Source of the DNA: Pseudomonadota bacterium
GTDB lineage: Bacteria > Pseudomonadota > Alphaproteobacteria > Caulobacterales > Caulobacteraceae
Direction of reading: 5' to 3'
Assembly: GCA_041182245.1 (NCBI GenBank)
Contig: JBEGNZ010000010.1
Location: 3,252-67,251 of the forward strand
DNA: 64,000 nt
Shown in pieces: positions 1 to 16,850 of the stretch. A program made the position numbers and the translations under genes. Numbering within the stretch: position 1 is the stretch's first letter; each line of letters opens with the position of its first letter. The notes under the pieces were generated by a model. That model worked only from the letters and a program-made list of their open reading frames with translations, ran no database searches and was not told the origin of the DNA.

Positions 1-1772
1 GGTCAACCCGTGAAGCGACCAACCAAAACTCCTTGCAGGCTGACCTTTCCGCGCTGAACTCTGATTTTACGCGCGTGACCTCTGACAACCGAATCGTCCT
101 CAATGGCCTCGTCGGCCTGGGTCTAGAGTTCGGTGACAATAAGCTGCGTTGGACCAATCTTTATATTCGCGACACTCTGAAACATACACGCCTTGGGCTT
201 GGAAACCGGAACCAAACCACTGTCGATTTTATGCAGCAGGACACGTCCTGGTATGAGCGTGAATTGATCGATAGCCAAATCGTGGGCGAGTTCAATCTCA
301 ATGACAATCTGAGCGTTGATGTTCGTGTTGCCTACGCCAACTCAAAACGTAACTCTCCGTACGAACTGACCTTCGAATATGTCCGCACCAATGTGAAGGC
401 GGATCCTTACGGGGCCTATTTCGTCAACCGTTTGAACAATGGTAACGGCGGTGATGCTGTGATCAGCTTCTCCGAGCTGGATGAGAAGCTTTGGTCCGGC
501 GGGGCCGATGCCACCTACAGGCTGAGGGATGGGCTGAGCGGTACAGTCGGTTACGCCTTTGCTGACACTGAGCGCACAAGTTCACGCCGGGACTTCCAGT
601 TCCAAGCCCCCAGCAACTTCCCGCGCGGTGTCGATATGTTCCGCCCTGACCTGCTTCTGGCCCCCGCAGTGATTGAAGCTTTCGGCATAGCGTTGGTTGA
701 AACCAACGAAGGTAACCCAGCCTTCCTTGCGACCCTTCGGAATCAGGCGGGCTACGTCAAGTTTGACTATCAGATGACTGACTCGTTGCAGCTCAATGCC
801 GGCATTCGTTATGAAACCGCCGAGCTAGAAGTTTCACCGATCAAGATCTTCAACACCGCAGGCGCCTCTCTGGCGGGTACAGCGCTCGAAGAAAGCTATT
901 GGCTGCCAGCAGCCACATTGACCTGGCAATTGGCCTCGGACATGCAGCTTCGCGGCAACCTGTCTAAAACCATTGCCCGTCCGCAGTTTCGTGAATTGGT
1001 TTACCAGTTCTACTTCGACCCCGACAGCAACCGCATGTATCGCGGTAACCCGTACTTGGTCGATAGTGAGCTGACCAACGCCGAAGCCCGTTTTGAATGG
1101 TACTTTGACACCGATCAGCGTGTCACGGTCGCCGCTTTCTATAAGCAGATCACCAATCCGATTGAATCCTTCGTCGCCGGCGATGACTTCACGACCAGCT
1201 ACGCCAATGCGCCGCAGGCCAACCTCATTGGTGCCGAGTTTGACGCTCAGAAATATTTCGACCTCTCCGCCCTTGACGGTGATTTCTGGGCCTCACGCCG
1301 GATCGTAGTGAACGGTAACTACACCTACACAATGTCGGAATTGAAGGTCGATAAGAACGACTCCATTTCAGTCTTTGCCTCCTCATCGAAGAACGCCACT
1401 GACTTCTTTAAGGATGGTGCTCAGATGGCCGGCCAGTCGGATCACATTTTCAACGTCCAACTTGGACTTGAAGATCGTGATGCCCTTTCACAACAGACCT
1501 TGATGTTCAACTATGCCAGCAAGCGCGTTTCGAGCCGTGGTCTGGTCAATTCAGGGCAGCCTGACATCTACGCCTATCCCGGCTTCTCGCTGGACTTTGT
1601 CGCACGTCAAGGCGTGGCTGTTGCAGGCCGCGATGTTGAGCTAAAGTTCGAGGCGCGCAATCTGACAGGCCGTAATAACGAAGAATATCAGATTGTTGGT
1701 AGTAACCGCGTTGACATCAATACCTACAAGATGGGTAGCCTGATCTCAGTGTCGGCCCAGATGAAGTTCTAA
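1..1772 (+). CDS. TonB-dependent outer-membrane receptor, C-terminal ~580 aa (5' end lies upstream of the window)
   Basis: The frame is open from the window edge; the track ORF 33..1772 starts at an internal TTG. Long barrel-type sequence ending ...LISVSAQMKF, with the terminal aromatic residue typical of TonB-dependent receptors. Confidence 0.8.
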   Translation, partial: STREATNQNSLQADLSALNSDFTRVTSDNRIVLNGLVGLGLEFGDNKLRWTNLYIRDTLKHTRLGLGNRNQTTVDFMQQDTSWYERELIDSQIVGEFNLNDNLSVDVRVAYANSKRNSPYELTFEYVRTNVKADPYGAYFVNRLNNGNGGDAVISFSELDEKLWSGGADATYRLRDGLSGTVGYAFADTERTSSRRDFQFQAPSNFPRGVDMFRPDLLLAPAVIEAFGIALVETNEGNPAFLATLRNQAGYVKFDYQMTDSLQLNAGIRYETAELEVSPIKIFNTAGASLAGTALEESYWLPAATLTWQLASDMQLRGNLSKTIARPQFRELVYQFYFDPDSNRMYRGNPYLVDSELTNAEARFEWYFDTDQRVTVAAFYKQITNPIESFVAGDDFTTSYANAPQANLIGAEFDAQKYFDLSALDGDFWASRRIVVNGNYTYTMSELKVDKNDSISVFASSSKNATDFFKDGAQMAGQSDHIFNVQLGLEDRDALSQQTLMFNYASKRVSSRGLVNSGQPDIYAYPGFSLDFVARQGVAVAGRDVELKFEARNLTGRNNEEYQIVGSNRVDINTYKMGSLISVSAQMKF

Positions 1773-1859
1773 GCCCTAAAGGGTCACAGACCCTCGTTCG
1801 GCATCGACCGAGCGGGGGTGTTTGACCGGGGTGAAGGGCGGTATAGCGCCCGTTAAGGA

Positions 1860-1900
1860 CTATGACAGCGGCTTGGAATTTAATCCGCACACTGTCATAG
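1860..1900. promoter_or_regulatory. 9-bp perfect inverted repeat CTATGACAG-N23-CTGTCATAG upstream of virB1
   Basis: Read directly: 1860..1868 is the reverse complement of 1892..1900. Confidence 0.6.
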
Positions 1901-1925
1901 AACTGACGTGAAGCTGAGCTAATAG
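1892..1925 (+). promoter_or_regulatory. Candidate PhoB-dependent promoter (Pho-box-like direct repeat plus -10 hexamer)
   Basis: CTGTCATAGAACTGACGT (1892..1909) matches 15/18 positions of the consensus CTGTCATAWAWCTGTCAY. TAATAG at 1920..1925 follows after a 10-nt gap. The virB1 ATG is at 1968. Confidence 0.4.
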
Positions 1926-1967
1926 CGCCATGTCGGTGCTGCCAGCACCCCACCGAAAGCTGCAGTT

Positions 1968-2597
1968 ATGCGCAATCTTGAACCCAATTCTAAGAGCTGC
2001 GTGACAGTTTGCATACAGGGCGCTCTGGTTGGTGCCTTGGCGGGTCTTGCTCTGCTATCCTCTGCGGTCAGTGCTCAAGCGGATGTGATGGAACTGGTCA
2101 CCAATGGCTTTGTCTGGGTGGCGGGAGCCCCCAAGTCCGTCGCGCCAGACCTGGTAGAGGTCGGCCCGCGCGCCGAGCGCAGTTTCACCCATGTCTCAGA
2201 TACGGCGGGTCCCGCAGCCTGGCGCGCTCACATCGCGATGCTCGCGAGAAAATACGATATTAGCCCGGCGCTTTTAGAGGCGGTCGTTTGGCAAGAAAGC
2301 CGTTGGCAAACCAACGCTAGGTCCAGCGCGGGAGCCCATGGGCTGGCGCAGCTGATGCCTGGAACGGCGCGCGAGATGGGCGTAGATATTACCAACCCGC
2401 TGTCGAACCTCGAAGGGGGCGCGCGCTATTTAAAGATCCAGTTGGACCGGTTCGATGGCGACATCGAAAAGGCCTTGGCCGCCTATAATTCGGGGCCGAG
2501 CCGTGTGCTCAGCGCGGGGGGCATTCCTCAAATCCCAGAGACGAAAGCTTATGTTTCTGCGATAATGTCTAGGCTTGCTGAATCTGTGCGGAGGTAG
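1968..2597 (+). CDS. virB1: VirB1-like lytic transglycosylase (SLT domain) with signal peptide
   Basis: N-terminal hydrophobic signal ending SAQA. SLT motifs LLEAVVWQESRW and AHGLAQLMPGTAREMG...AYNSG. First gene of the virB-ordered operon. Confidence 0.85.
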   Translation: MRNLEPNSKSCVTVCIQGALVGALAGLALLSSAVSAQADVMELVTNGFVWVAGAPKSVAPDLVEVGPRAERSFTHVSDTAGPAAWRAHIAMLARKYDISPALLEAVVWQESRWQTNARSSAGAHGLAQLMPGTAREMGVDITNPLSNLEGGARYLKIQLDRFDGDIEKALAAYNSGPSRVLSAGGIPQIPETKAYVSAIMSRLAESVRR

Positions 2598-2602
2598 TCA
2601 AA

Positions 2603-2911
2603 ATGAAAAAATCTCAGCTTTTAGGGCTTGTTGCGTCCATCGCTTCCTTTCCCCTTTCGGCCTATGCACAGGTCACCACCAACCCTCAGGGGTCTGGTCC
2701 GATCGTTGCCGCCCTCAATTGGATTCAAGGCACCCTGTTGGGCAGTGTCGCTACCGCAATCGCCGTCATGGCTGTGGCGACGGTCGGCTTGATGATGCTG
2801 ACGGGTCGGATGAACTGGCGATTTGGCGCGACCGTCATATTGGGCTGCTTCATCCTGTTCGGCGCGGGGGCCATCGTGTCCGGGATCAGATCCGCCGCGG
2901 CCCTCGGTTAA
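2603..2911 (+). CDS. virB2: VirB2/TrbC-type T4SS pilin
   Basis: 102 aa with a signal peptide ending AYAQ, followed by two hydrophobic helices. Position between virB1 and virB3. Confidence 0.8.
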   Translation: MKKSQLLGLVASIASFPLSAYAQVTTNPQGSGPIVAALNWIQGTLLGSVATAIAVMAVATVGLMMLTGRMNWRFGATVILGCFILFGAGAIVSGIRSAAALG

Positions 2912-2917
2912 GCGACG

Positions 2918-3199
2918 ATGGACCTCATCCGTTTTCCAGTACACCGCGCCCTTGCCCGTCCGCAGATGTTTGCGGGCGTGACCTATAGCTATTTCATTAT
3001 CAATGCGGCGGTGACGACCGAGGTCTTTCTCATCACAAAAAGCTTCCTAGCCCTCCCGGTCGCGGTGTTGCTGCATGTTATTGGTTATCTTGCCTGCCTG
3101 CGGGAACCTCGAATTTTCGACCTTTGGTTGACCAAGGTGAGCCGTTGCCCACGGATTTCAAACTGGCGGCGCTGGCGCTGCAACAGCTACGGAACTTGA
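2918..3199 (+). CDS. virB3: VirB3-like T4SS inner-membrane protein
   Basis: 93 aa with the motif ...RPQMFAGV... and one hydrophobic hairpin. Sits immediately before virB4. Confidence 0.75.
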   Translation: MDLIRFPVHRALARPQMFAGVTYSYFIINAAVTTEVFLITKSFLALPVAVLLHVIGYLACLREPRIFDLWLTKVSRCPRISNWRRWRCNSYGT

Positions 3200-3208
3200 G
3201 GAGCGACC

Positions 3209-5626
3209 TTGGTGGGCATGTTTGGCACTATGGGGCGTAGGAGCCGTGAGGCTCTAGCCGGGGACCGCTTGCCCTATGCGAAGCTGCTCGATGACCATGT
3301 CGTCCTGTTGCGCGATGGCTCGGTCATGATGAGCCTCTTGGTGCCCGGCATCAGCTTTGAGACGGCCGATAGTGCCGAGTTAAACGCCTTGGCCGCAACG
3401 CGTGAGCTCATGCTCCGCAGCACTCTGGACGCCCGCTTCGTTCTATATCACCACGTCATCCGCCGCCGCGTTCAGACCGACTTGCGGGGGACATTTGCTG
3501 ATCCCCTGACAGCCCATATTGATCAGTGCTGGGATAACAAACTTTCCAGCGGTGCCCTGTTTGTCAATGATCAGTTCGTAACCCTGCTGCGGCGCCCGGC
3601 TCGCGGGAAGACCGGTTGGGTGGAACGTGTTGCCCGTCAATTGACGCGGTCTCAAGATCGCTCTGAAGGCATCCAAGCCAAACCGCAAGATGTTCGTGAC
3701 CTGCGGGCCGCGGCCAATGCCATGGTGACAACCCTGGGGACCTATGGGGCGCGGCCCTTAAGCAACTATCAGGGCAAGTCCGGGGCCTGTTCGGAAATAT
3801 TGGAGTTTCTCTCCGCCCTCTATAATGGGGAAATGAAACCGGTTCGGCGGCCGTTCGAAGGCACCATGATTGCCAATATGCTGCCCTATAAACGCATCAG
3901 TTTTGGCGCGGACGCCCTTGAACTGAAGGGCGCGGGCAGCAGCAGTTTTGCGGCCTTGGTGTCTCTAAAGGACTATCCCGACACGACCTCGCCGGGCCTG
4001 ACCGACTCCTTGCTCCGAATTCCCTGTGAGATGGTGCTCACAGAAAGCTACGCGCCATCAGATCGCCAAGTGTCTCGTGAACGGATTGACTTGGCCGTGC
4101 GCCGTCTAAGGTCAGCCGATGAAGAGGCCATGGCTGAGCGGGCAGAGCTTCATGCGGCCCGTGATGCCCTGGGATTGGGCGCGGTTGGATTTGGCGACCA
4201 CCATCTGTCCGTCCTCGTGCGCTCTGACTCCCTTGAGACCTTAGATGCGCTGACGGCAGCCTGCGCGGCGGCGCTCGGTGATGCCGGCGCTGTTGCGGTC
4301 CGCGAAGATATGAACCTCGAGCCCGGCTTTTGGGGGCAGATGCCGGGCAATGAATCGCTGATCGTGCGGCGATCCTTGATCTCATCGGGCAATATGGCCT
4401 GCTTTGGCTCGCTTCACGGCTTTGCCTTGGGCCAGGCCGAGGGGAACCATTGGGGTGATCCTGTGGCAGTCCTTGAGACCACCAGCGCAACGCCCTTTTT
4501 CTTCAATTTCCACAATGGCGATCTGGGTAACTTCACGGTCATTGGCCCGTCGGGTTCCGGCAAGACCGTCGTCATGAATTTTCTAGCAGCTCAGGCCCAG
4601 CGGTTTGAGCCACGCACCGTCCTGTTCGACAAGGACCGGGGCGCAGAAGTCTTTATTCGTGGCATTGGCGGTCGCTATAGCCGGATCTCTGCGGGCGAGC
4701 CGACGGGGTTTAATCCACTGGCCCTTCCAGACAGCCCGACCAATCGCGCCTTTCAACGCGACTGGCTCGCTGTTCTGCTCGATGCCAAGGGGTCAGAAGA
4801 GTTGGCCACCATCGCGGCGGCGGTTGATGCGGCCTATGCCAATGATCCCAAACTGCGCCGCCTGTCCCATTTTCAAGAATTGCTGGCCGGTTCGCGCAGG
4901 CCGCAACCGGGCGATCTCGCCTCTCGACTCGCCGCTTGGGTCGGCGAGGGAGAGTTTGGCTGGCTATTTGATCATGCCGAAGACCTTCTAGACCTGTCTG
5001 CCAAGACCCTTGGCTTTGATATGACGAGCCTTCTGGAGACGCCGCGTCTGCGCACGCCGGTGATGATGTACCTGTTCCATCGGATCGAGGAGCGGTTGGA
5101 TGGTCACCCGACCCTGATCCTGATTGATGAGGGCTGGAAGGCCTTGGACGATGAGGTCTTTGCCGCCCGCATTCGCGATTGGCTCAAGACCCTTCGTAAG
5201 CGCAATGGCCTTGTGGGTTTCGCGACCCAATCGGCCCGTGACGCGCTCGATAGCCGCATATCCACGGCGTTGGTTGAGCAGACGGCGACCATGATCTTCA
5301 TGCCCAATGCCAGAGCGCGTGAAGAGGACTATTGTGAGGGATTTGGTCTCACGCTGCATGAACTCGACATCATCCGCAATCTGCCCGCCCACAGCCGCTG
5401 CTTCTTGGTGCGCCAGCCCGATGCCTCGGTTGTGGTTCGGCTGGATCTGTCCTCAATGCCCGAACTGCTCACGGTCCTTTCCGGTCGGGAAACAACCGTC
5501 AGGCAATTGGATCAGCTTCGAAAGCAGGTCGGCGACGCGCCAGAGGCTTGGTATGAGGCCCTCACCGGACATCCGTGGCCCGGCGACGCTTCCCATTGCG
5601 CCGTCCGACCGGAGGCGCGTCAATGA
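3209..5626 (+). CDS. virB4: VirB4 T4SS ATPase
   Basis: 805 aa. Walker A GPSGSGKT and Walker B-like TLILIDEGW. GAGGAG Shine-Dalgarno 6 nt before the TTG at 3209 (GTG 3212 and ATG 3218 are alternatives). Confidence 0.9.
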   Translation: MVGMFGTMGRRSREALAGDRLPYAKLLDDHVVLLRDGSVMMSLLVPGISFETADSAELNALAATRELMLRSTLDARFVLYHHVIRRRVQTDLRGTFADPLTAHIDQCWDNKLSSGALFVNDQFVTLLRRPARGKTGWVERVARQLTRSQDRSEGIQAKPQDVRDLRAAANAMVTTLGTYGARPLSNYQGKSGACSEILEFLSALYNGEMKPVRRPFEGTMIANMLPYKRISFGADALELKGAGSSSFAALVSLKDYPDTTSPGLTDSLLRIPCEMVLTESYAPSDRQVSRERIDLAVRRLRSADEEAMAERAELHAARDALGLGAVGFGDHHLSVLVRSDSLETLDALTAACAAALGDAGAVAVREDMNLEPGFWGQMPGNESLIVRRSLISSGNMACFGSLHGFALGQAEGNHWGDPVAVLETTSATPFFFNFHNGDLGNFTVIGPSGSGKTVVMNFLAAQAQRFEPRTVLFDKDRGAEVFIRGIGGRYSRISAGEPTGFNPLALPDSPTNRAFQRDWLAVLLDAKGSEELATIAAAVDAAYANDPKLRRLSHFQELLAGSRRPQPGDLASRLAAWVGEGEFGWLFDHAEDLLDLSAKTLGFDMTSLLETPRLRTPVMMYLFHRIEERLDGHPTLILIDEGWKALDDEVFAARIRDWLKTLRKRNGLVGFATQSARDALDSRISTALVEQTATMIFMPNARAREEDYCEGFGLTLHELDIIRNLPAHSRCFLVRQPDASVVVRLDLSSMPELLTVLSGRETTVRQLDQLRKQVGDAPEAWYEALTGHPWPGDASHCAVRPEARQ

Positions 5627-6795
5627 GCCAGTGTACCGCCGTTCTGGACGCTGCATCGACGGGGGTCGCACCGGCTCTACGGGCTGTAGACTGTATGAGC
5701 GCGGAGGTGACTTCGGCGGCCTTCACCAATCTATTCGGCTCTAATGGTGCTCTGGTTCCCGCGCTGACCCTAGTCCTCACCCTCTATATCGCGCTCTTTG
5801 CTATTGCCCTGCTCACCGGTCGTTCGAAGATCGGGATCAGCACCCTTACCCCTCGCATGATCACCTTGGGCGTCGTCTTGACCTTTGCGACCAGTTGGGC
5901 GGCCTATCAAAGCGTGGTCTGGAATCTCGCTGTTGGCGCGCCGGACCAGATTGCCAGTGCTCTATTGGGGGTTCGCGGATCGGCGACTCAGCTCTTTGCT
6001 GACAAGATTGATATACTTTTCAACGTCATTACCGAGACGGCCCAAACGGTTGGTGGTCCTGGCGCGCGGCCCACGCTGCAGGGGGCCTTCACGCCGGTCA
6101 ATCTGATGTGGCTGGCGGGCATGTTCTTGATGCTGGGCACGGTCGGTATATTGGTGACAGCGCGGATTGCCTTGGCGGTGTTGTTGGCCGTGGGGCCTGT
6201 CTTTGTGACCTTCATTCTGTTTAACGGAACACGGGGCCTATTTGCCGGATGGCTGAGGGGCGTGATCCTGACCGCCATCACCCCGCTGTTTGCGGTGCTC
6301 GGTGGCGGATTGATGATCGAGTTGGCGACCCCGATCGTGGTTGCCCTTCGCGCAAGTGAGGTTCTTGATCCGAGGGCGGCCATGGCCCTGTTTATTTTCT
6401 CCATCGTCCATTGTGCGCTCATGGCCCTCGGCATCAGCGTAGCGTCAGCGATGGTTTCCGGATGGCAGGTCTTTGGAACGGCCAACGCGTCCAACGGCGA
6501 ACAGGCGAGCGGTCTAAGGACCGACCAATCTGTCGGTGGCGCCAATAACGCCTATGGGGCTTCGACGGCGGCGGCACTGTCTCGCAGTCAGAGTTTGACG
6601 GCCAGTGTGATTGCCGCCAATGCCGTTGGCGGATCGAGTGCGGCGGCGAGTGCAACCACAGCAACGAACCGAACTATCGTCAATACGATCACAGGGACAG
6701 GTTCCGCGATCGGCTCGGGAGCACCAGCCAGATCGCGTGGAATCGGTAGCCGGTTTGCCAGCCGCCCCCCTGTCTCTCGGGAGTTCATAAGATGA
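5623..6795 (+). CDS. virB6: VirB6/TrbL-family polytopic T4SS membrane protein with an Ala/Ser/Gly-rich C-terminal tail
   Basis: Multiple hydrophobic segments. The ATG at 5623 overlaps the virB4 stop (ATGA), so I prefer it to the track start at 5575. The tail from about 6480 is low complexity. Confidence 0.8.
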   Translation: MSQCTAVLDAASTGVAPALRAVDCMSAEVTSAAFTNLFGSNGALVPALTLVLTLYIALFAIALLTGRSKIGISTLTPRMITLGVVLTFATSWAAYQSVVWNLAVGAPDQIASALLGVRGSATQLFADKIDILFNVITETAQTVGGPGARPTLQGAFTPVNLMWLAGMFLMLGTVGILVTARIALAVLLAVGPVFVTFILFNGTRGLFAGWLRGVILTAITPLFAVLGGGLMIELATPIVVALRASEVLDPRAAMALFIFSIVHCALMALGISVASAMVSGWQVFGTANASNGEQASGLRTDQSVGGANNAYGASTAAALSRSQSLTASVIAANAVGGSSAAASATTATNRTIVNTITGTGSAIGSGAPARSRGIGSRFASRPPVSREFIR

Positions 6796-7610
6796 AAATC
6801 TATCTCGCGCTGCTGGCCGCAACCCTGTCCCTGACCCTTGGCACCCCAGCCATGGCGAAGGATGCTCGGCTGGCAACCCGCCCCTATAATGCCGATGAGA
6901 TTGTGGTCTTGCCGGGACGTGTCGGTGTGCAAGCGACCATTATATTTGGCGATGACGAGCATATTGAAAATGTGGCCATCGGCGACTCAAACAGCTGGCA
7001 GGTGACGCCGAACAAGCGCGCGAATCTGCTGTTCGTAAAACCCTTGGCCGCCCAAGCCCAGACCAACCTAACGGTTGTGACCGATCGCCATACCTATCTC
7101 TTTGACCTGGTTGCCGGTTCAGGTGTGCCCCATTACGTCTTGCGCTTCACCTACCCAGATGCCGTCAAGGCCAAGGCTCTCGCCGTCGGGGCCATGAGCG
7201 CAGAAGAGGCCGAGGCCGCGAAAAATCCGAACGCCGTCAAGGGCGGACAGCCGCCCTCTGCCCTAAACTTTGCCTGGACCAGTAAGGGGAGCGCAAGAAT
7301 CTTGCCGACCCGTATCTATGACGACGGGGTCTCAACCTATCTCAGCTGGGCTAAGGGTCGTCCTGTTCCGGCCATCTTGCTTCGGGATGACAAGGGCGCA
7401 GAGGGCGCAACCAACTATGCGGTGCGTGGGGACCTGATCGTACTGGATAATGTACCCAAGGTGATTGTCTTGCGGGCGGGCATTGATGTGGCAACCTTGA
7501 AAAATCAAGGCCCCGTCCCGTCTGAAACGGCGTCGGCTGATCCAAATCCGCAATCGGCGACCGCGTCGGACGTCAAGCCGCCGCTACCGGCGGCTGATCG
7601 GGGGCAATGA
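6792..7610 (+). CDS. virB9: VirB9/TrbG-family T4SS outer-membrane core protein
   Basis: Signal peptide ending PAMA. Characteristic VirB9 N-domain pattern ...EIVVLPGRVGVQATIIFGDDEHIENVAIGDSNSWQVTP...LLFVKP...TNLTVVTDRHTYLFDL. ATGA overlap with virB6. Confidence 0.85.
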   Translation: MKIYLALLAATLSLTLGTPAMAKDARLATRPYNADEIVVLPGRVGVQATIIFGDDEHIENVAIGDSNSWQVTPNKRANLLFVKPLAAQAQTNLTVVTDRHTYLFDLVAGSGVPHYVLRFTYPDAVKAKALAVGAMSAEEAEAAKNPNAVKGGQPPSALNFAWTSKGSARILPTRIYDDGVSTYLSWAKGRPVPAILLRDDKGAEGATNYAVRGDLIVLDNVPKVIVLRAGIDVATLKNQGPVPSETASADPNPQSATASDVKPPLPAADRGQ

Positions 7611-8704
7611 CCATGTCTGGACCCTCTTCCCCGAACCCTCGCTTGACCTCTTCAGAGGATACAGATCCGCGCTCGGCCATGGGATCGAATGCGGCCGATC
7701 TGGCCACCCGATCTGTCCTGCCCCTTGTTGCCCATAAGGCGTCGGCTTCAGACGGACTTGGGTTGATATTGGGTATAGCCGTGATTGGGATCCTCGGGGT
7801 TGTGACCTTCTTGGGGGTCAATGGTGGCCGTCAAAAGCCAGCGCCCGAGCAGCCCGCGCCCGCGCAAGCCGTTGTTCCGGCACCCGTCGTGCAACCGGTA
7901 GAGCAGGCCCCGCCGGTCCCGGTTGAGGCCATCACCCCGCCGCCCGCGCCATTGCCGGTTCCTGCGCCAGCGCCGATTGGTATTGCCGGGCCTGCGGCAA
8001 ACCCCTTTTCGACGCCAACGGTTCTGTTCGATGCCAGCGCCCTGCCGCCGTCTATTGTACCGGGCGCTGGTCCAGCCGCAGCCTCCCCTGGCGGGCCAAA
8101 TGATGAGTTCGCCGCGCGGGTTGGCGGTGTTGGCGGCGGCAGCGCCATTGCTGCTGCAGGTATAAATCCCAAGGCCACCGTGACCCAGGGCACCTTGATC
8201 CCCGCGGTTCTCGAGACGGCGATCGATACGGATGTGCCCGGCTATCTTCGCGCCATCGTCTCCAGCGATGTGCGTAGTTTCGATGGAACAGTCGTCCTCA
8301 TTCCCCATTCTTCGCGCCTGATCGGCCAGTATAAGAGTGGCATGCAGGCGGGCCAAAAGCGCGCCTATGTCATTTGGACTCGGCTGATCCGCCCCGATGG
8401 CGTCTCGGTCAATATTGCTTCGCCTGCCGTTGGATTTGGCGGGGAGACCGGGCTTCCGGGTAAGGTCAATAACCATTTCTTCGAACGGTTCGGCTCGGCG
8501 ATGCTCCTATCGGTCATCGGCGGCATCTCCAGTTCGGGCAGCAACAATGCCACCGTGCTCATCGGCAGCCAGGCCCAATCGGCCGCCGCCGCCGCCGTTG
8601 GTCAGTCCGGTCAGATTGGTCCGACCATTCGCGTGCGCCAAGGCGAGCCCATTCGCGTCTTTACCGCCCGCGACCTCGATTTTTCGAAGGTCACAACCGA
8701 ATGA
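7607..8704 (+). CDS. virB10: VirB10/TrbI-family T4SS protein
   Basis: Cytoplasmic N-terminus, one TM segment (LGLILGIAVIGILGVVTFLGV), a Pro-rich linker, and a C-terminal TrbI-type domain (GTLIPAVLETAIDTDVPG...). ATGA overlap with virB9. Confidence 0.85.
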   Translation: MTMSGPSSPNPRLTSSEDTDPRSAMGSNAADLATRSVLPLVAHKASASDGLGLILGIAVIGILGVVTFLGVNGGRQKPAPEQPAPAQAVVPAPVVQPVEQAPPVPVEAITPPPAPLPVPAPAPIGIAGPAANPFSTPTVLFDASALPPSIVPGAGPAAASPGGPNDEFAARVGGVGGGSAIAAAGINPKATVTQGTLIPAVLETAIDTDVPGYLRAIVSSDVRSFDGTVVLIPHSSRLIGQYKSGMQAGQKRAYVIWTRLIRPDGVSVNIASPAVGFGGETGLPGKVNNHFFERFGSAMLLSVIGGISSSGSNNATVLIGSQAQSAAAAAVGQSGQIGPTIRVRQGEPIRVFTARDLDFSKVTTE

Positions 8705-9681
8705 GGGACGCCGTTCCGTTGATCCCGCGAAGCCCCTATCTGGATGCCTATCTGGCGCCTTTTCAGCCGTGGTTGGAAAAGCAAACTGTGACGGAAATTC
8801 TCGTCAACCGTCCAGGAGAGCTCTGGATCGAGGACGCAACATGCAAGGGCATGCAGCGTATCGAGGCGCCCAAGGTCGACGATATCTTGTTACAGCGGTT
8901 GTCTGAACAGGTCGCCCGCATCAGCCATCAGGGGATCAACCGCGAAAACCCCCTCCTGTCGGCCACCCTGCCCACCGGTGAACGGATCCAGCTTTGCGGT
9001 CCGCCCGCCACCCGCAGCCATTGGGCCTTGGCCATTCGGCGCCATCGGCTCTTGGATATTTCACTGGAATCCTATGATCCAGGTCCCCTTCAGCCGGTCG
9101 TGGACCATCCGCCAATCGATCCGTCCCTTGAGCCTATTCTGTTCTTGAGAGACGCCATTCTTCGGCGGCAAACCATTTTGATCTCGGGCGGGACATCCAC
9201 CGGTAAGACGACTTTTCTCAATTCAATGTTGCGCGAAATTCCGAGTGAAGAACGCGTGGTCCTTGTCGAAGATACGGCTGAGCTAAAGTTAGCGGGAGCC
9301 AACGGCGTTGGCCTGATCGCGGTCAAGGGCGAGACGGGCGAGGCGCGGATATCCACGGACGACCTGTTGCAAGCGGCCTTGCGCCTGCGACCTGACCGGA
9401 TTGTCTTGGGTGAGTTGCGCGGTCGCGAGACGGTGAGTTTCTTGCGCGCGATCAATACGGGCCATCCGGGCTCCTTTTCGACGATCCATGCCAATTCGCC
9501 GCGCGGAGCCTTAGAGCAGATCGCGCTTATGGCCATGCAGACCGGCATCGGCCTGACCCGGCGCGAGACCATTGAATATGCCGCCTCTGTCATTGATGTG
9601 GTTGTGCAGCTTGAGCGGCGCGACGGTCGACGCCAGATCTCGGCGCTAGCCTCTGCTCGAGATCTTGTTTCGCCGTCATAG
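8701..9681 (+). CDS. virB11: VirB11 T4SS traffic ATPase
   Basis: 326 aa. Walker A GGTSTGKTT, then ...VLVEDTAEL and GHPGSFSTIHA motifs. ATGA overlap with virB10. Confidence 0.9.
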   Translation: MRDAVPLIPRSPYLDAYLAPFQPWLEKQTVTEILVNRPGELWIEDATCKGMQRIEAPKVDDILLQRLSEQVARISHQGINRENPLLSATLPTGERIQLCGPPATRSHWALAIRRHRLLDISLESYDPGPLQPVVDHPPIDPSLEPILFLRDAILRRQTILISGGTSTGKTTFLNSMLREIPSEERVVLVEDTAELKLAGANGVGLIAVKGETGEARISTDDLLQAALRLRPDRIVLGELRGRETVSFLRAINTGHPGSFSTIHANSPRGALEQIALMAMQTGIGLTRRETIEYAASVIDVVVQLERRDGRRQISALASARDLVSPS

Positions 9682-9764: not shown

Positions 9765-10808
9765 GTGATGAAAAACTATCTTGCCATGGCCGCGGCCGTC
9801 GCCCTGTTGCCCTCTGCCAGCAGTGCCCAGGCTGCACGGGATTATGTGTGGGCCGCGGGTTCCTCAACCCTTTTCCCCTTCTCCACGCGGGTTGCGGAAA
9901 ACTTTGCCAAAAAGACGGGCCGCAAGGCGCCGAAGGTCGAATCGCTGGGCACTGGCGGCGGCATCAAGCTGTTTTGCTCGGGTTCGGGTGAAGGCTTCCC
10001 AGACATTGCCAATGCCTCACGTCCGATGAAGCGCTCGGAATTTGACCAGTGCCAGAAGAAGGGCGTGAAGGATATCATCCAGCTTAAGATCGGCTTTGAC
10101 GGCATTGCTGTCGCCGTCGACAAGGATGGCAGCAACTATAATCTGACGACCCAAAATCTTTATCAGGGCCTTGCTGCCAATGTTGTGCGCAATGGCCAGT
10201 TCGTTAAAAACCCCCACAAAAAGTGGAGCGATGTTGCTGCTGGGCTGCCGACCAATCGTATCTTGGTCTATGGGCCGCCGCCCACCTCTGGCACCCGCGA
10301 TGCCTTTATCGAGCTAGGGATCGAAGCCGGAGCGCTGAAGTTCCCCGTTGCTGCGGCGCTGAAGGCTTCGAGCGAGCCTCAGTTTAAGGCCAAGGTTGAT
10401 CCCTTGCGTGAAGATGGTGGCTGGATCGATTCTGGCGAGAACGACAATGCCATCATCGGGACCCTGACCAAGACACCGGGGGCTATGGGCGTGTTCGGCT
10501 ATTCGTTCCTCGAAGAGAATGTCGACAAGGTCAAGGGTGCCTCGGTTAACGGTGTTCGTCCGACCGCCAAGAGCATCACGGATGGCACCTATCCCCTGTC
10601 TCGCTCGCTCTATATCTACGTCAAGAAGTCGATGATTGGTGTCACACCGGGCCTGAAGGAATTTGTCAGCGAATATGTGTCTGACGCAGCCACGGGTCGC
10701 GGCGGCTATCTGCAGGGTCGGGGCCTAATCATTCTGCCGCCCGCCCAGCACGAAGCCAATAAGGCCGCCGTGAAGACTCTCATGCCCATGAAGCGCCCTG
10801 CGGGCTAG
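9765..10808 (+). CDS. PstS-family periplasmic phosphate-binding protein (PBP type 2), orphan
   Basis: Sec signal peptide ending SSAQA. N-terminal motif WAAGSSTLFPFSTRVAENF, like phosphate-binding proteins. An ATG at 9768 is an alternative start. No pstCAB genes adjacent. Confidence 0.75.
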   Translation: MMKNYLAMAAAVALLPSASSAQAARDYVWAAGSSTLFPFSTRVAENFAKKTGRKAPKVESLGTGGGIKLFCSGSGEGFPDIANASRPMKRSEFDQCQKKGVKDIIQLKIGFDGIAVAVDKDGSNYNLTTQNLYQGLAANVVRNGQFVKNPHKKWSDVAAGLPTNRILVYGPPPTSGTRDAFIELGIEAGALKFPVAAALKASSEPQFKAKVDPLREDGGWIDSGENDNAIIGTLTKTPGAMGVFGYSFLEENVDKVKGASVNGVRPTAKSITDGTYPLSRSLYIYVKKSMIGVTPGLKEFVSEYVSDAATGRGGYLQGRGLIILPPAQHEANKAAVKTLMPMKRPAG

Positions 10809-10831
10809 GGTCAAGTTTGATTGAGACAAAC

Positions 10832-10863
10832 AGAAGCCCGGTTGCAAGAACAGCCGGGCTTCT
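10832..10863. terminator. Hairpin between convergent genes (possible bidirectional terminator)
   Basis: AGAAGCCCGG (10832..10841) pairs with CCGGGCTTCT (10854..10863) across a 12-nt loop. T-rich tract follows. Confidence 0.5.
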
Positions 10864-10897
10864 TGCTTCTATCGGTGGAGGGGCCGTGCGGGCTGGC

Positions 10898-12001
10898 CTA
10901 TTGCGGCGGCTGAGCCTTGCGCCTCAGGCGGGCCAGACGGCGAAGGCGGCGCCAGAAGCGGGCCTTTTCGGGCTCTGGATAGGGTTCCAGATTGCGGATG
11001 AATTCTTCGGTCGAGGCGCGCCAGCTATAGGTCAGGGCAAAGGCGCGAACATCCTTGCGGTCGAGCTTGAGGCAGTCAAGACAGGCCTGCTGCATGGCTT
11101 CAAGGCTTTCATCGGCCGCCAAGACCCCCGCGCCGGAGCCGGGAATGATGTCGATCGGACCGGGGGCTGGAAAGCCCGCGACAGGCGTTCCGCAGCCCAT
11201 GGCCTCAAGGATCACCAGGCCGAAAGTGTCGGTCAGGGACGGGAAGACAAAACAGTCTGCATCAGCAAAATGGGCGGCAAGCTCATCACCAAACTTAGCG
11301 CCGAGAAAGACTGCGCCGGGATATTTGGCCTCGAGCTCTTCGCGCTGAGGCCCGTCGCCGACAATGACCTTGGTGCCGGGAAGGTCCAGTTCCAAGAAGG
11401 TCTCGATGTTCTTTTCCACGGCAATTCGACCGACATTGAGCCAGATCGGACGGGGCAGGTCGCCATAAACCCCCTCGCGGCCATCCATGCCGATGGGACG
11501 GAAGAGGTCGGTGTCTACGCCTCGTGTCCAGGGCGAAATATTGTGAAAGCCCCGCGCCAGCAACTCGTCGCGAAAGGTCGGTGTGGCCACCATCAGGCGT
11601 CCTGACGGCTCGTGGAACCAGCGCATATAGGCATAGCCTGCGGCCAGCGGCAGGGGTACGCGGGCGGAGACATATTCAGGGAATTTCGTATGGTAGCTGG
11701 TGGTGAATGGCAGCTTCCATTCTAGGCAGATCCGACGCGCCGCCAGGCCGATCGGGCCTTCGGTGGCGATGTGGATCGCTTCGGGCTCAAAGGACTTGAA
11801 CCGGTCTTGAATGGGCTCATAGGTCCCGATGGCCAGCTTGATTTCCGGATAGGTCGGCAAGGGGAAGGTCTTGAACTGGTCCGGCGAGATCACATCGACC
11901 TGATGGCCCATGGCGCGGCACTCGGCGATGGTACGGCTGAGCGTCCGCACGACCCCATTGACCTGAGGCTCCCAAGCATCGGTGGCCAGCAAGATCCGCA
12001 T
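10898..12001 (-). CDS. Family 4 (group 1) glycosyltransferase, candidate Agt-type glycolipid synthase
   Basis: 367 aa. N-terminus MRILLATDAWEPQVNGVV and the ...FVFPSLTDTFGLVILEAMGCGTPV motif are typical of GT4. Start codon overlaps the stop of the upstream metallophosphoesterase (ATGA at 11999..12003). Confidence 0.8.
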   Translation of the reverse strand: MRILLATDAWEPQVNGVVRTLSRTIAECRAMGHQVDVISPDQFKTFPLPTYPEIKLAIGTYEPIQDRFKSFEPEAIHIATEGPIGLAARRICLEWKLPFTTSYHTKFPEYVSARVPLPLAAGYAYMRWFHEPSGRLMVATPTFRDELLARGFHNISPWTRGVDTDLFRPIGMDGREGVYGDLPRPIWLNVGRIAVEKNIETFLELDLPGTKVIVGDGPQREELEAKYPGAVFLGAKFGDELAAHFADADCFVFPSLTDTFGLVILEAMGCGTPVAGFPAPGPIDIIPGSGAGVLAADESLEAMQQACLDCLKLDRKDVRAFALTYSWRASTEEFIRNLEPYPEPEKARFWRRLRRLARLRRKAQPPQ

Positions 12002-12825
12002 CAGGCTATGGCTCGCCCGTTAAGGGCCGGACGCTCGGTTCGATCCGACCGGCGCTCTATCATCGACCACGACCGCATCTTGGCCCACTCCAACAGTTCT
12101 AGCCGTCCGTCCATATGTTCGACGAGGGCGGTACAGCTCTCCACCCAATCGCCGTCATTTATATAGGTGATGCCGTCAATATCACGCATCTCGGCCTTGT
12201 GAATATGGCCGCAGATCACCCCGTCAACACCGCGACGTCGAGCCTCATCAGCGACCGCACCTTCGAAGTTCTCGATGAATTGTAAGGCGTTCTTCACTTT
12301 GCCCTTCAGGAATGCCGACAGGCTCCAATAGCCAAAACCCATCTTTCGTCGCGCATGGTTGAACAGGGTGTTCAGCATAAGGATCGTTCTATAGGACCAA
12401 TCACCGAGGAAGGCGAGCCACTTGGCATGTTGGACGACGCCGTCGAACTCATCACCGTGGGTGACCAAGAAGGTACGCCCATCAACCGTCGTGTGGATGG
12501 CGTCGCGGGCGATCACCACCCCGCCAAAATGGACGCCGCAATAGTCTCGTGCGACCTCATCATGGTTGCCGGGCACATAGATCACCGCCGTACCCTTGCG
12601 GGCCATCCGAAGAACCTTTTGAACCACATCATTATGGGCCTGAGGCCAGTGCCAGCCGCCCTTGAGCTTCCAGCCGTCAATGATGTCGCCGATCAGATAA
12701 AGCCGTTCGCATTCCATACTGCGAATGAAGTCGAGCAGCAGTTCGGCCTGACATCCGCGCGTGCCCAAATGAACATCTGAAATGAAGACCGATTTAAAGC
12801 CAAGGATGGGGACGTCTGACGTCAT
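12001..12825 (-). CDS. LpxH/PlcP-family metallophosphoesterase (usually annotated UDP-2,3-diacylglucosamine diphosphatase; context suggests PlcP-type phospholipase C)
   Basis: Metallophosphoesterase motifs ISDVHLG, GDIIDGW, GNHDE, HGDEFD and GHIH. Translationally coupled to the GT4 gene. Confidence 0.8.
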   Translation of the reverse strand: MTSDVPILGFKSVFISDVHLGTRGCQAELLLDFIRSMECERLYLIGDIIDGWKLKGGWHWPQAHNDVVQKVLRMARKGTAVIYVPGNHDEVARDYCGVHFGGVVIARDAIHTTVDGRTFLVTHGDEFDGVVQHAKWLAFLGDWSYRTILMLNTLFNHARRKMGFGYWSLSAFLKGKVKNALQFIENFEGAVADEARRRGVDGVICGHIHKAEMRDIDGITYINDGDWVESCTALVEHMDGRLELLEWAKMRSWSMIERRSDRTERPALNGRAIA

Positions 12826-12850
12826 GAGGCGGTCCGTTGTGCAGGTCTGC

Positions 12851-12866
12851 TCAGCCCATGGGCAGA
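12851..12866. promoter_or_regulatory. Imperfect palindrome TCAGCCCATGGGCAGA (core GCCCATGGGC perfect), nested in a longer GGTCTGC...GCAGACC inverted repeat (12844..12868)
   Basis: Read directly. Lies in the divergent region between the metallophosphoesterase gene and the TetR gene. Confidence 0.4.
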
Positions 12867-13020
12867 CCCGTTCGACCTAAGCTGATTGCGTGTCTCTTTT
12901 GTGAAATTGCAGCCTTGGCCCCTTGCCGATTATGGCGGGGTTGGATCCGGCGTGTATGAACACTATCTAGCGCGGGGGCCTGCTTCGCGACGGTTGGTAG
13001 ATAGGCTATTGAAACGGCAG

Positions 13021-13662
13021 ATGAGCGACAGTGCAGAGATGAGCCGTTCAGCAAAGGACACCCCCAAGTCTGTTCGGACTCGGGTGCGCATACTCGACGC
13101 CGCCATGACCCTGTTCGCGGAAATCGGCTATCATGCCGCCAACAATGCTCGGATCGCTGAGGCGGCGGACCTGACGCGCGGGGCTATGCTCTATCATTTT
13201 GTCTCGCGCGAAGACCTGGTCGACGCCGCCATCGGTCACATCCAGACTCAGCGTAATGCCCTGTTTGAGGCAGCAGCAAAGGACATTGGTCCGGGCGAAG
13301 ATGTCAGCGAGCACGCCATCGAGTCCTACTGGCAACTGCTCCACACGGTGCCCTATATCGCCTTTGCGGAGTTGGAGGCTGTGGCCCGCACGGACGCAAC
13401 GGTTCGTGCCTGTCTGGCGACCGCGCAGGAGGCCTTTGATCGCGCGCAGATTGGCGGTCAGTCGACGGCGATGGTCAGTGCTGGAGCAGGTCCGAGGTTC
13501 CAAACAACCCGAGATTTGGCCCGTTTCATGCTGGAGGGTCTGGCACGCGGTGGCGTGACCTATGATCAGGAGGCGCGGACCGAACGGTTGCTGACCGTCA
13601 TTAAACGCGCCACCCACATGCTGAACCGTAAGGGGTCGGTGCAGGATCTTTGGCCAGACTAG
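13021..13662 (+). CDS. TetR-family transcriptional regulator
   Basis: HTH region RILDAAMTLFAEIGYHAANNARIAEAADLTRGAMLYHF. I prefer the ATG at 13021 to the track start at 12886. Confidence 0.8.
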   Translation: MSDSAEMSRSAKDTPKSVRTRVRILDAAMTLFAEIGYHAANNARIAEAADLTRGAMLYHFVSREDLVDAAIGHIQTQRNALFEAAAKDIGPGEDVSEHAIESYWQLLHTVPYIAFAELEAVARTDATVRACLATAQEAFDRAQIGGQSTAMVSAGAGPRFQTTRDLARFMLEGLARGGVTYDQEARTERLLTVIKRATHMLNRKGSVQDLWPD

Positions 13663-13740
13663 CGCTTAAGCACGAACAGGGCTCGAAAGCTGCGGCCTGA
13701 TCTCGTAACCTCTGGAAAATCATCCAAGGAGGTTCTTGCC

Positions 13741-14187
13741 ATGTCTGTTGATCCATCCGGTGCCATCGACCCGACCCGAGAGCAGTTCAACCAGTTCAAG
13801 GCCCTGCCAAGGGACCAGCCGGTTCACATGCTCAATCTGGTTCGCCTGCGTGATGTGGCCAACTATCCAGAAGGCCATCCGAGCCATGGTAAAGGCTTGT
13901 CAGGGCTCGAGGCCTACCGCGCCTATGGCCGCGAAAGTGCCGAGATCTTCAAGCGCGTGGGTGGCAAGCAGATCTGGGCCGGTAAGCCGCAGGGGGTGGT
14001 GACAGGTCCCTTGGACGAGCACTGGGACCTGGCTTTCATCGCCTACTATCCGACGGCGGGAGCCTTCCTCGAGATGGTCACCGACGCCCACTACCGCGTC
14101 GTTGTCGCCCATCGGACCGCTGGGGTGCTCGATTCGCGGCTGATCCGCATGGAGCCCCTCGAGCCGGGCGAGGGCTTCGGGGAATAG
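13741..14187 (+). CDS. DUF1330-like small protein
   Basis: 148 aa with an AAGGAGG Shine-Dalgarno upstream. Sequence resembles DUF1330 family members; family recalled by eye. Confidence 0.55.
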   Translation: MSVDPSGAIDPTREQFNQFKALPRDQPVHMLNLVRLRDVANYPEGHPSHGKGLSGLEAYRAYGRESAEIFKRVGGKQIWAGKPQGVVTGPLDEHWDLAFIAYYPTAGAFLEMVTDAHYRVVVAHRTAGVLDSRLIRMEPLEPGEGFGE

Positions 14188-14194
14188 ATAATCA

Positions 14195-14208
14195 TTACGT
14201 TTACGTAA
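14195..14208. promoter_or_regulatory. Dyad TTACGT-TT-ACGTAA, candidate MerR(LiuR-like) operator upstream of the thiolase
   Basis: Perfect 6+6 inverted repeat. Near-identical dyad at 23694..23707 in front of the MerR gene. Confidence 0.45.
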
Positions 14209-14300
14209 GCGGCATCTAGTGATCGCCAGGTCCATCCCCTAGGGTGCGCACCGCTGTCCATTCAAGCGTTTGCTCAACTTGACCTTTAAAGGAATTTCCC

Positions 14301-15488
14301 ATGGGTGATGTCGTCGTCGTTTCCTATGCTCGCACAGGCTTGGCCAAGGCCGGTCGCGGCGGGTTTAACAATACTCACGGAGCGGCGATGGCTGGTCATG
14401 TGATCCAGCATGCTGTGGCTCGGGCCAAGATTGATCCGGCTGAAGTGGAGGACGTGATCCTAGGCTGCGGCGGTCCTGAAGGCGCGACCGGCAGCAATGT
14501 GGCCCGCAACGCCGCCCTATGGGCAGGCCTGCCCGTGACCACGTCGGGCACGACCATTAACCGCTTCTGTTCGTCAGGCCTACAGGCCATCGCCTCTGCG
14601 GCTCATTATATCAAGAACGAGGGCGCGACGGTGGCCATCGGCGGCGGCGTGGAATCGATCTCGCTGGTCCAGATGAGCGGCGCGATGAACACCCATCGCT
14701 ATACTGAAGAAAAGCTGATGCAGGAACATCCTGCCCTGTGGATGGCCATGATCGACACCGCCGACATCGTGGCCAAGCGCTACAATGTCAGCAGAGACTA
14801 TCAGGACGAATATTCCTTGCGTTCGCAGCAGCGCATTGCGGCGGCTCAGGCCTCCGGTCTGTTCAAGGACGAGATCGTTCCGATGGCCACCAAGATGAAG
14901 AGCTTCAATAAGGCGACCGGAGAAGAATCCATCGTCGACTATGTCGTCGACAAGGACGAGTGTAACCGGGCCGACACGACCCTCGAGGGCCTGTCCTCCT
15001 TGAAGCCGGTCAAGGGCGAAGGCAATTTCGTCACCGCTGGTAACGCTTCGCAACTGTCCGACGGCGCTGCGGCGGTGGTGCTGATGGATGCCAAGGAAGC
15101 CGAAAAGCGCGGCCTTGAGCCCATGGGCCTTTTCCGTGGCTTTGCTGTCGCGGGCTGTGAGCCGGACGAGATGGGCATTGGTCCGGTCTTTGCCGTGCCA
15201 AAGCTGCTGTCGCGCCACGGCTTGAGCGTGCAGGACATCGACCTTTGGGAACTGAACGAAGCCTTCGCGTCGCAGTGCCTCTATAGCCGCGACAAGCTCG
15301 GCATTGATCCAGAGAAGTACAATGTCAATGGCGGCTCCATCGCCATCGGCCACCCCTTCGGTATGACCGGCACACGCTGCACCGGCCACGTGCTGATGGA
15401 AGGCAAGCGTCGCGGGGCCAAGCTGGCCGTTGTGACCATGTGCATTGGCGGCGGCATGGGCGCAGCAGGCCTGTTCGAGGTTCTGTAG
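14301..15488 (+). CDS. Acetyl-CoA C-acyltransferase (thiolase)
   Basis: Active-site Cys context [11 protein letters not shown], plus GHPFGMTG and CIGGGMG near the C-terminus. Confidence 0.9.
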
Positions 15489-15507
15489 TCTAGGATCGGT
15501 CTCATTA

Positions 15508-15587: not shown

Positions 15588-15641
15588 ATGTGTAGGGGCG
15601 TGCGACTTCCTCGTGCGCAGGCAAGGCCCTAGACTGGCCCC

Positions 15642-16805: not shown

Positions 16806-16850
16806 TAAAGTAGCGTCATTGGGCCCCGATCCTTTTGCGAGATCACCATC

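Follow-up and report, generated by a model that had tools for sequence, protein, structure and literature searches.

Within a 64,000-nt stretch of contig JBEGNZ010000010.1 from a bacterium of the family Caulobacteraceae (termed the window here), eight virB genes were found to form a compact cassette for a reduced type IV secretion system (T4SS) in which VirB5, VirB7, VirB8 and the coupling protein VirD4 have no counterpart. This cassette is a chromosomally fixed, conserved reduced architecture under purifying selection. The reading preferred here, at a probability of about 45%, is that it encodes a functional VirB machine which forms one module with an ElpS-family lipoprotein and a TonB-dependent receptor (TBDR), is under Pho control and exports a periplasmic or lipoprotein substrate.

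The virB cassette, its missing parts and its conservation

The genes of the cassette, with the receptor gene in front of them, are as follows.

33-1772, +, TBDR, C-terminal 579 aa of about 890 aa, cut by the start of the window (Pfam TonB_dep_Rec_b-barrel)
1968-2597, +, VirB1-like lytic transglycosylase with a signal peptide (Pfam SLT, E 1.6e-24)
2603-2911, +, VirB2/TrbC pilin (Pfam PF04956, E 1.8e-16)
2918-3199, +, VirB3 (Pfam PF05101, E 1.2e-25; NCBIfam NF010474)
3209-5626, +, VirB4 ATPase (Pfam, E 9e-47; TIGR00929, 735.6 bits, above the cut-off of 643)
5623-6795, +, VirB6, long, 390 aa (Pfam TrbL, E 4.8e-34)
6792-7610, +, VirB9 with a non-lipoprotein signal peptide (Pfam CagX, E 1.3e-47)
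7607-8704, +, VirB10 with an N-terminal membrane anchor, a Pro/Ala-rich linker and a C-terminal barrel domain (Pfam TrbI, E 4e-52)
8701-9681, +, VirB11 ATPase (TIGR02788, 303 bits, above the cut-off of 250)

All eight virB genes (1968-9681) were identified with Pfam and NCBIfam as co-directional and in canonical order, in agreement with a preceding reading made from the letters alone (the sequence-only reading). The ATGA start/stop overlaps at 5623, 6792, 7607 and 8701 lie exactly where that reading had placed them, and the other junctions, given there as 10 nt or less, measured 5, 6 and 9 nt, with the start codon of VirB4 being either TTG at 3209 or GTG at 3212. VirB4 and the VirB2, VirB3, VirB6, VirB9, VirB10 and VirB11 proteins of type IVA (MPF-T) VirB/VirD4 systems are present, order included, and the genes are already annotated as T4SS proteins in existing genome annotations. 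The Walker A motifs of both ATPases were read as intact (GPSGSGKT in VirB4, GGTSTGKTT in VirB11). The nearest solved homologues are those of R388, namely TrwF for VirB9 (E 3.6e-17), TrwE for VirB10 (E 1.5e-33) and TrwI for VirB6 (E 1.4e-11). In NCBIfam, VirB3, VirB4 and VirB11 were best matched by PRK13899, PRK13898 and PRK13900, respectively, models which may be Rickettsia-derived.

The window is tiled by 47 open reading frames (ORFs) of high G+C content at third codon positions (GC3), all of which were scanned against Pfam. No match to VirB5, VirB7, VirB8, VirD4/TraG, a relaxase or an integrase was obtained among them, which upholds the earlier statement that VirD4, relaxase and integrase are absent within the window; the ORFs outside the cassette were identified as chromosomal housekeeping genes, encoding thiolases, acyl-CoA dehydrogenases, ABC transporters, helicases, regulators and more TBDRs. 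Equally sound was the observation that the virB genes leave no room between them for VirB5, VirB7 or VirB8, given that they overlap or are separated by gaps of 9 nt or less. For VirB8 (PF04335) no Pfam match was found in any ORF of the window, and the VirB6 and VirB9 genes overlap; for VirB7 and VirB5, neither intergenic space nor a Pfam match was found within the cassette, although a tiny or strongly divergent VirB7 encoded outside of it is conceivable.

A cryptic VirB8 fold within VirB6, VirB9 or VirB10 was also considered, as the sequence-only reading had suggested, and was rejected. No Pfam signal for VirB8 was obtained at E≤0.01 in these proteins. VirB6 consists of a helical membrane core up to approximately residue 285, followed by a low-complexity tail of about 100 aa rich in Ala, Ser and Gly, which is unconserved and was modelled as disordered by AlphaFold2 (AF2; pLDDT 26-45). 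The N-terminal region of VirB10 is the Pro/Ala-rich linker, and VirB9 possesses a signal peptide of the ordinary type with no lipobox. On these models, a hidden VirB8 fold is not plausible in the proteins of the cassette. The exception to the lack of conservation in the VirB6 tail is a terminal motif, R-x-R-G-[IVL]-G-S-R-[FY], situated at residues 370-378 (approximately nt 6730-6756) about 15 residues from the C-terminus and invariant in 18 of 18 aligned homologues (alignment A1). By analogy with the topology of VirB6 of Agrobacterium tumefaciens, from which a cytoplasmic C-terminus is derived, this motif would be cytoplasmic and a candidate for contact with an ATPase, perhaps as a peptide to which VirB4 or VirB11 docks.

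The exact cassette was found again on metagenome contigs. VirB6 was found to be 99% identical to its counterpart on CANKPO010000044.1 and 95% identical to that on a 263-kb contig of CANESI01, and comparison with these relatives, which are Caulobacteraceae metagenome-assembled genomes (MAGs), gave ratios of nonsynonymous to synonymous substitution (dN/dS) of 0.00-0.16 in all eight virB genes. Members of this VirB6 subfamily are 381-403 aa in length and aligned over 97-100% of the query among the matches listed, and relatives were confirmed in 197 stretches of Sphingomonadales and Caulobacterales (one genome per GTDB species). The best 80 loci (loci are designated by L numbers) derive mostly from Novosphingobium and other Sphingomonadales, with the addition of Phenylobacterium and Caulobacteraceae MAGs.

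The genes for B2-B3-B4-B6-B9-B10-B11 were found in the same order and on the same strand in 62 of the 65 loci with enough flank, the incomplete cassettes being those of L030, L065 and L072. VirB1 was present in 44 of the 62 complete loci. The inferred gap between the B6 and B9 genes had a median of 7.5 nt and a maximum of no more than 300 nt across the related loci, and is thus too short for a VirB8 gene. No VirD4 or relaxase gene was identified in the window or among the called genes of L005, L007, L008, L089 and L091, and the ±10-kb flanks of 64 loci held no extra conserved families besides a lipoprotein, the TBDR, a regulator and a TPR-like ORF.

It was observed that VirB1 has been lost in one Novosphingobium subclade, in which a Pho-box-like site is situated directly upstream of virB2. 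This loss indicates that VirB1 is dispensable for the system. The loci without VirB1 are L029, L031-L033, L048, L052, L054, L055, L061, L064, L067, L073-L077, L083 and L085.

An origin from a plasmid or an integrative and conjugative element was examined and rejected, as this type of VirB6 is missing from the 72,556 plasmids of PLSDB (tblastn, with only distant Rhizobium matches of 24% identity over 47% of the query) and no integrase or relaxase occurs in the window. The GC3 of the virB genes and the TBDR gene (0.64-0.71; positions 1-9681) was found to be below that of most neighbours (0.65-0.80, mostly >0.72; positions 10898-50526), which suggests an old horizontal acquisition and is consistent with the lipoprotein, TBDR and virB genes having been acquired as a unit. 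This lower GC3, together with the three incomplete loci, would also fit an inactive remnant of an integrated conjugative element. Such a remnant is nevertheless very improbable, being contradicted by the selection and conservation data: dN/dS is low in every gene, the ATPase motifs are intact, gene order is kept in 62 of 65 species loci across two taxonomic orders, a promoter motif (described below) is conserved, and the window holds no integrase, relaxase or repeat context. The earlier judgement that the cassette is not a decaying remnant is therefore retained.

A lipoprotein-receptor pair and Pho-box-like sites beside the cassette

The TBDR gene, truncated in the window, is visible in full in L001 and L010 with a gene upstream of it, outside the window, for a lipoprotein of approximately 520 aa belonging to Pfam PF28492 (Beta_helix_4). 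In L010 (1835-3400) this protein possesses a signal peptide and a lipobox, LSSC, at residues 17-20. Among the 56 species loci whose upstream flank extends to 6.5 kb or more, 46 have the lipoprotein-TBDR pair next to the cassette. The lipoprotein, receptor and virB genes are co-directional in Caulobacteraceae MAGs, Phenylobacterium deserti, P. immobile and L008/L012/L020, with the pair being divergent from virB in Novosphingobium and another Phenylobacterium sp. The outer flanks of the block differ between the co-directional and divergent groups, and the linkage persists, in two orders, through one inversion and several changes of neighbourhood.

The lipoprotein family comprises 5,335 clusters at 50% identity (E≤0.001), with relatives at approximately 40% identity in Brevundimonas and Luteimonas (Xanthomonadales). 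The AF2 model of the lipoprotein is a right-handed β-helix of moderate pLDDT (63.6), for which Foldseek against the PDB returned generic right-handed β-helices (adhesin PfbA, tailspikes, pectate lyases) with none at E≤0.001. Searches with the sequence gave no match in the PDB or in the local Pfam and NCBIfam copies.

Two further observations were made around the lipoprotein gene. Its 5' leader, approximately 95 nt upstream of the start codon, is conserved with a hairpin (L005-L091; for example L026, L049 and L058), the sequence of which varies by lineage (GGACAG-AATTAG-CTGTCC or GTCGCGA-N8-TCGCGAC). Hairpins were predicted in most single leaders, with a median z-score of -1.0; as an RNA element the leader had no Rfam match, and RNAalifold gave no consensus structure. 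Moreover, an ORF of about 120 aa lies between the lipoprotein gene and virB1 in 42 Sphingomonadales loci (L015:5877-6251, +; L025:5821-6180, +) and is absent from the window and the co-directional loci. Its product has a hydrophobic N-terminus resembling, by eye, a signal peptide, and a weak match to Pfam TPR_9 with none in NCBIfam.

Between the TBDR gene and virB1, and following virB11, two features of the window point to phosphate.

1860-1909, +, putative regulatory region, read from the sequence as a direct repeat with an inverted copy
9765-10808, +, orphan PstS-family phosphate-binding protein (Pfam PBP_like_2, E 7e-44)

The first contains a Pho-box-like direct repeat, CTGTCAT-AGAA-CTGACGT, at 1892-1909, 76 nt upstream of the ATG of virB1, with the inverted copy CTATGACAG at 1860-1868. 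Its two 7-bp direct repeats are set at the 11-bp phase of a Pho box, and the motif fits CTGTCAT-N4-CTGTCAT, the Pho-box consensus of Escherichia coli. The pattern CTGTCATNNNNCTGWC, derived post hoc, had the 1892-1909 site as its sole match in the window and no match in 100 shuffles, and the repeat is conserved in L001 and L009-L011. A scan of 1600-2100 for sigma-70 promoters and terminators gave no match.

Related sites were found across the loci. In those of Sphingomonadales, the motif cGTCACa.agcTGTCATgtaa occurs approximately 45 nt upstream of the first virB gene, be it virB1 or virB2 (48 unique sites), and GTCA-N17-AAACTGTCAC, together with more GTCA[CT] repeats at an 11-nt phase, is found in front of the lipoprotein gene. 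In 1.67 Mb of loci, base composition predicts about 9 occurrences of the phased repeat GTCA[CT]N6GTCA[CT], whereas 100 were counted; 49 of these 100 immediately precede virB and 14 precede the lipoprotein gene, with approximately 17 of the remainder at the positions of a PhoB-like regulator gene in Sphingomonadales loci and one directly upstream of a true pstS in L090. Judged from these sites, the cassette is probably switched on by phosphate starvation via PhoB-type regulators.

The PhoB-like regulator, of the OmpR family, was observed beyond the TBDR gene in 35 Sphingomonadales loci (L015:455-1135, +) and is absent from the window and from Caulobacterales loci. Its best NCBIfam model is PhoB (152 bits, below the cut-off), and both its effector domain and its best match in the PDB, an isolated DNA-binding domain, point to PhoB as the closest relative; for its receiver domain no Response_reg Pfam match is on record. 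The presence of GTCA[CT]-N6-GTCA[CT] upstream of the regulator gene suggests autoregulation.

The PstS-family gene (TIGR02136, 155.7 bits, below the cut-off) lies downstream of the cassette only in the clade of the window (L002/L009/L010) and is a contextual link to phosphate acquisition. A TBDR gene and a PstS-family gene had already been named as the flanks of the cassette, and Pfam agrees with both identities (33-1772 and 9765-10808); their treatment as uninformative surroundings did not hold, as the TBDR is a conserved partner of the cassette and the two together are the main clue to its function. Other loci hold comparable neighbours. In L090, from Asticcacaulis sp. AC402 (10001-18491), a lipoprotein that is 70% identical and a TBDR are directly followed by true pstS-pstC-pstA-pstB; the Pho box GTCACGAAGCTGTCAT precedes pstS by 36 nt, and the lipoprotein gene has a Pho box in front of it as well. 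In Novosphingobium, genes read from the sequence as Ppx/GppA-like, and RelA/SpoT genes, occur downstream of the cassette.

A candidate export function and comparison with known systems

The same pair of genes was also found in front of a type II secretion system (T2SS). A search of representatives, with the help of cluster names, led to L093 from Luteimonas terricola and the MAG locus L094, in which the lipoprotein and receptor genes are followed by gspC, gspD, gspE, gspF, gspG and gspH, in this order. Comparison of the T4SS-linked proteins with those of L093 showed 37% identity for the lipoprotein (E 9e-81, 515/530 aa) and 39% for the TBDR (E 2e-173, 846/897 aa). ElpS of Caulobacter crescentus (cc0170) is a lipoprotein of approximately 50 kDa with a lipobox at residues 17-20, whose production is confined to phosphate starvation and whose release depends on the T2SS; elpS and the TBDR gene cc0171 lie immediately upstream of gspC-N, and the elpS-TBDR-gsp tandem also occurs in Xanthomonas, Sphingopyxis alaskensis and Hyphomonas (PMC2996285). 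The xcs cluster of Xanthomonas includes an ElpS homologue (PMC7777525), and the T2SS of C. crescentus is a member of the PhoB regulon (PMC11208175). A preprint from 2023 assigns ElpS to the BT4056 family, lipoproteins which may act as outward-facing lids of TonB-dependent transporters (TBDTs), and calls the route by which such lipoproteins are exported in Proteobacteria unclear (bioRxiv 10.1101/2023.03.17.533168).

The loci described here resemble the ElpS-CC0171-T2SS module of C. crescentus and the Xcs module of Xanthomonas in that a lipoprotein of the 50-kDa type, with its lipobox at about residues 17-20, is followed by a TBDR and then by an envelope-spanning machine. Those modules are under phosphate-starvation/PhoB control, and Pho-box-like motifs are read from the sequence here. 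The difference lies in the machine, which is a T2SS in those modules: adjacent type II secretion genes are lacking and a reduced VirB-type T4SS, with putative secretion of the lipoprotein, occupies the gsp position.

The proposed course of events is as follows. Under phosphate limitation, activation by a PhoB-type regulator would yield the lipoprotein, the receptor and the VirB machine. The lipoprotein, exported by Sec/Lol, or other periplasmic phosphate-scavenging proteins, would be taken up in the periplasm, and VirB4 and VirB11 would power passage through an outer-membrane channel of VirB9 and VirB10, as Ptl does with pertussis toxin. At the surface or outside of the cell, the lipoprotein would capture a phosphorus source together with the TBDR, with the cassette standing in for the Xcs-type T2SS that serves ElpS in C. 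crescentus. The substrate moved across the outer membrane would probably be the ElpS-like lipoprotein. A T4SS without a coupling protein has no known means of recruiting cytoplasmic substrates, the precedents for such systems being Ptl and ComB, and the lack of a coupling protein suggests that the substrate does not enter from the cytoplasm. Of the non-conjugative roles offered by the sequence-only reading, which agree with the lack of conjugation genes in the window, export from the periplasm is best supported by context and DNA uptake ranks lower.

The proposal of a Ptl-like function is drawn from the position of the lipoprotein gene, which is that of ptx relative to ptl, and from the position of the cassette, which is that of the T2SS in the homologous module. 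Ptl of Bordetella pertussis consists of PtlA-I, equivalent to VirB2, 3, 4, 6, 7, 8, 9, 10 and 11, and picks up a Sec-exported substrate in the periplasm. As in Ptl, there is no VirD4 and no VirB5 here, and the transporter genes are directly preceded by a gene for a substrate, here a candidate one, namely a lipoprotein with a signal peptide and lipobox. Ptl retains VirB7 (PtlI) and VirB8 (PtlE) and is without VirB1, whereas the reverse is found for all three here, neither PtlE nor PtlI having an equivalent in the cassette by Pfam or by the size of the gaps. Furthermore, the Ptl substrate is a soluble AB5 toxin encoded at a virulence locus of a pathogen, as opposed to a candidate lipoprotein.

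The Trw system of R388 and the VirB-VirD4 system of A. tumefaciens have the genes that they share with the cassette in the same order. Both possess VirB8, VirB5, VirB7, VirD4 and a relaxase, all of which the cassette locus is without, and the VirB6 described here has the additional tail of about 100 aa. In the R388 structure of Macé et al. 2022, VirB8 reportedly forms the periplasmic arches, VirB5 and VirB6 the stalk, and VirB7 is part of the outer-membrane core.

Several points weigh against the export of a lipoprotein by a Pho-controlled VirB module. To our knowledge, no T4SS exports a lipoprotein. The ElpS-like assignment rests on the PF28492 family, size, lipobox position and identical synteny, and the assignment of the Pho boxes is by sequence; the binder could be the neighbouring PhoB-like paralogue and not PhoB. 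No report of expression, induction or secretion was found in the literature for the cassette or its partner genes. Most of the linked loci come from relatives of Novosphingobium with vertically inherited synteny, which puts the count of independent cases of linkage far below 46. In addition, the cassette lacks the pair within 10 kb in 10 of the 56 loci, and the pair occurs without an adjacent secretion system in Brevundimonas (L092) and beside pstSCAB in Asticcacaulis (L090). Lastly, the absence of VirB5, VirB7, VirB8 and VirD4 covers the window and approximately 20 kb per related locus, as distinct from whole genomes.

The last two of these points each favour another explanation. Four such explanations were weighed, their order of weight being another substrate or a pilus, a scattered canonical system, ComB-like DNA uptake and the remnant dealt with above. 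In the first, the T4SS is Pho-controlled and handles other substrates (phosphatases, nucleases) or builds a VirB2 attachment pilus, with the lipoprotein-TBDR pair merely co-regulated and co-located; the separate occurrences of pair and cassette agree with this, as do the presence of the VirB2 pilin and VirB1, and common Pho-box-like motifs, which indicate co-regulation and not a substrate relationship. The T2SS of C. crescentus has moreover been said to promote ElpS release 'indirectly' (PMC11208175). This explanation, the strongest of the four, is considered unlikely, in that the adjacency of pair and cassette is kept, in two taxonomic orders, despite an inversion and different outer flanks, and virB holds the same position after the TBDR as gspC in the T2SS-linked modules. 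With respect to the pilus, VirB5, which is regarded as required for T-pilus formation, is absent from the cassette.

The second explanation is that of an ordinary VirB/VirD4 system with VirB5, VirB7, VirB8 and perhaps VirD4 and effectors encoded elsewhere. The extent of sequence covered allows for this, and scattered T4SS loci are known in Rickettsiales, where the VirB8 and VirB9 genes of the rvh system are duplicated and the system, VirB7 and VirD4 included, is distributed over several loci. The NCBIfam models that best match VirB3, VirB4 and VirB11 may be of the rvh type, which would point the same way. Like the system described here, rvh is a chromosomal, non-conjugative, alphaproteobacterial VirB system without VirB5 and with an enlarged VirB6; it retains VirB8, VirB7 and VirD4 across its loci, whereas a single compact cassette without these is found here. 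Scattering of this kind is judged somewhat less likely again than another substrate or a pilus: no gene for VirB5, VirB7, VirB8 or VirD4 was found within ±10 kb in >80 loci or in the window, and in every species the genes from B4 to B11 are translationally coupled, with nothing in the places that B5, B7 and B8 usually occupy. In a genome-wide screen with Pfam, Persson et al. 2009 footnoted the T4SS of two Erythrobacter genomes as 'lacks VirB8', with no follow-up (PMC2702493); if these belong to the present family, they too would argue against scattered parts. The same footnote tempers the earlier description of the architecture as novel, which otherwise holds, as no description was found in the literature of the cassette as a conserved reduced architecture, of its Pho-box-like control or of its link to ElpS and a TBDR.

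The third explanation, DNA uptake into the periplasm under phosphate starvation, for phosphorus or for transformation, is drawn from the ComB system of Helicobacter pylori, a DNA uptake system which comprises ComB2, 3, 4, 6, 7, 8, 9 and 10 and, like the cassette, is chromosomal with no coupling protein, relaxase or VirB5. The C-terminal domain of VirB10 also matches ComB10 (NF038092, E 2.3e-24), and a means of acquiring phosphorus from DNA would agree with Pho-box-like control and with the phosphate-related genes nearby, namely that for PstS in the window, pstSCAB in L090 and the Ppx/GppA-like and RelA/SpoT genes of Novosphingobium. It is however considered improbable. ComB has VirB7 and VirB8 and is without VirB11 and VirB1, which is the opposite of the cassette; neither the window ORFs nor the locus flanks showed a linked gene for ComEC, DprA or a nuclease, and the conserved partner pair elsewhere accompanies a T2SS, which secretes protein.

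Within the preferred reading of lipoprotein export, a bolder claim is that a minimal T4SS without VirB8, VirB7, VirB5 and VirD4 has replaced the T2SS as the translocon for ElpS-family lids, which would make it the first T4SS known to bring a lipoprotein to the cell surface. This claim is speculative, and we regard it as doubtful. If true, it would represent the swap of non-homologous secretion machines within one conserved phosphate-starvation module, and would bear on how Proteobacteria bring the ElpS/BT4056 lids of TBDTs to the cell surface. T4SS structural biology counts VirB8, VirB7 and VirB5 as integral (to the arches, the outer-membrane core and the stalk, respectively), and a selected, widespread system without them would define a real minimal machine and the contacts that are dispensable. 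The genomic context gives this T4SS a testable role, phosphate scavenging, in free-living freshwater and soil bacteria, with cultivable type strains among its carriers (Novosphingobium kunmingense, N. arvoryzae, Phenylobacterium deserti and P. immobile).

Other features of the window

A gene for a C-5 cytosine DNA methyltransferase (15642-16805, +) was observed between those for a thiolase and a PLP-dependent enzyme; no restriction enzyme gene was found near it, and it looks to be an orphan. Additionally, three GTCA[CT] repeats at an 11-nt phase, GTCACAAAATGGTCACTGTTACGTCAT, were identified at 59848-59874 (+) in the intergenic region between a second TBDR gene (56701-59706, -) and a TPR/2OG-oxygenase gene (59980-61638, -). 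From their sequence, these repeats may constitute a further Pho-regulated promoter.

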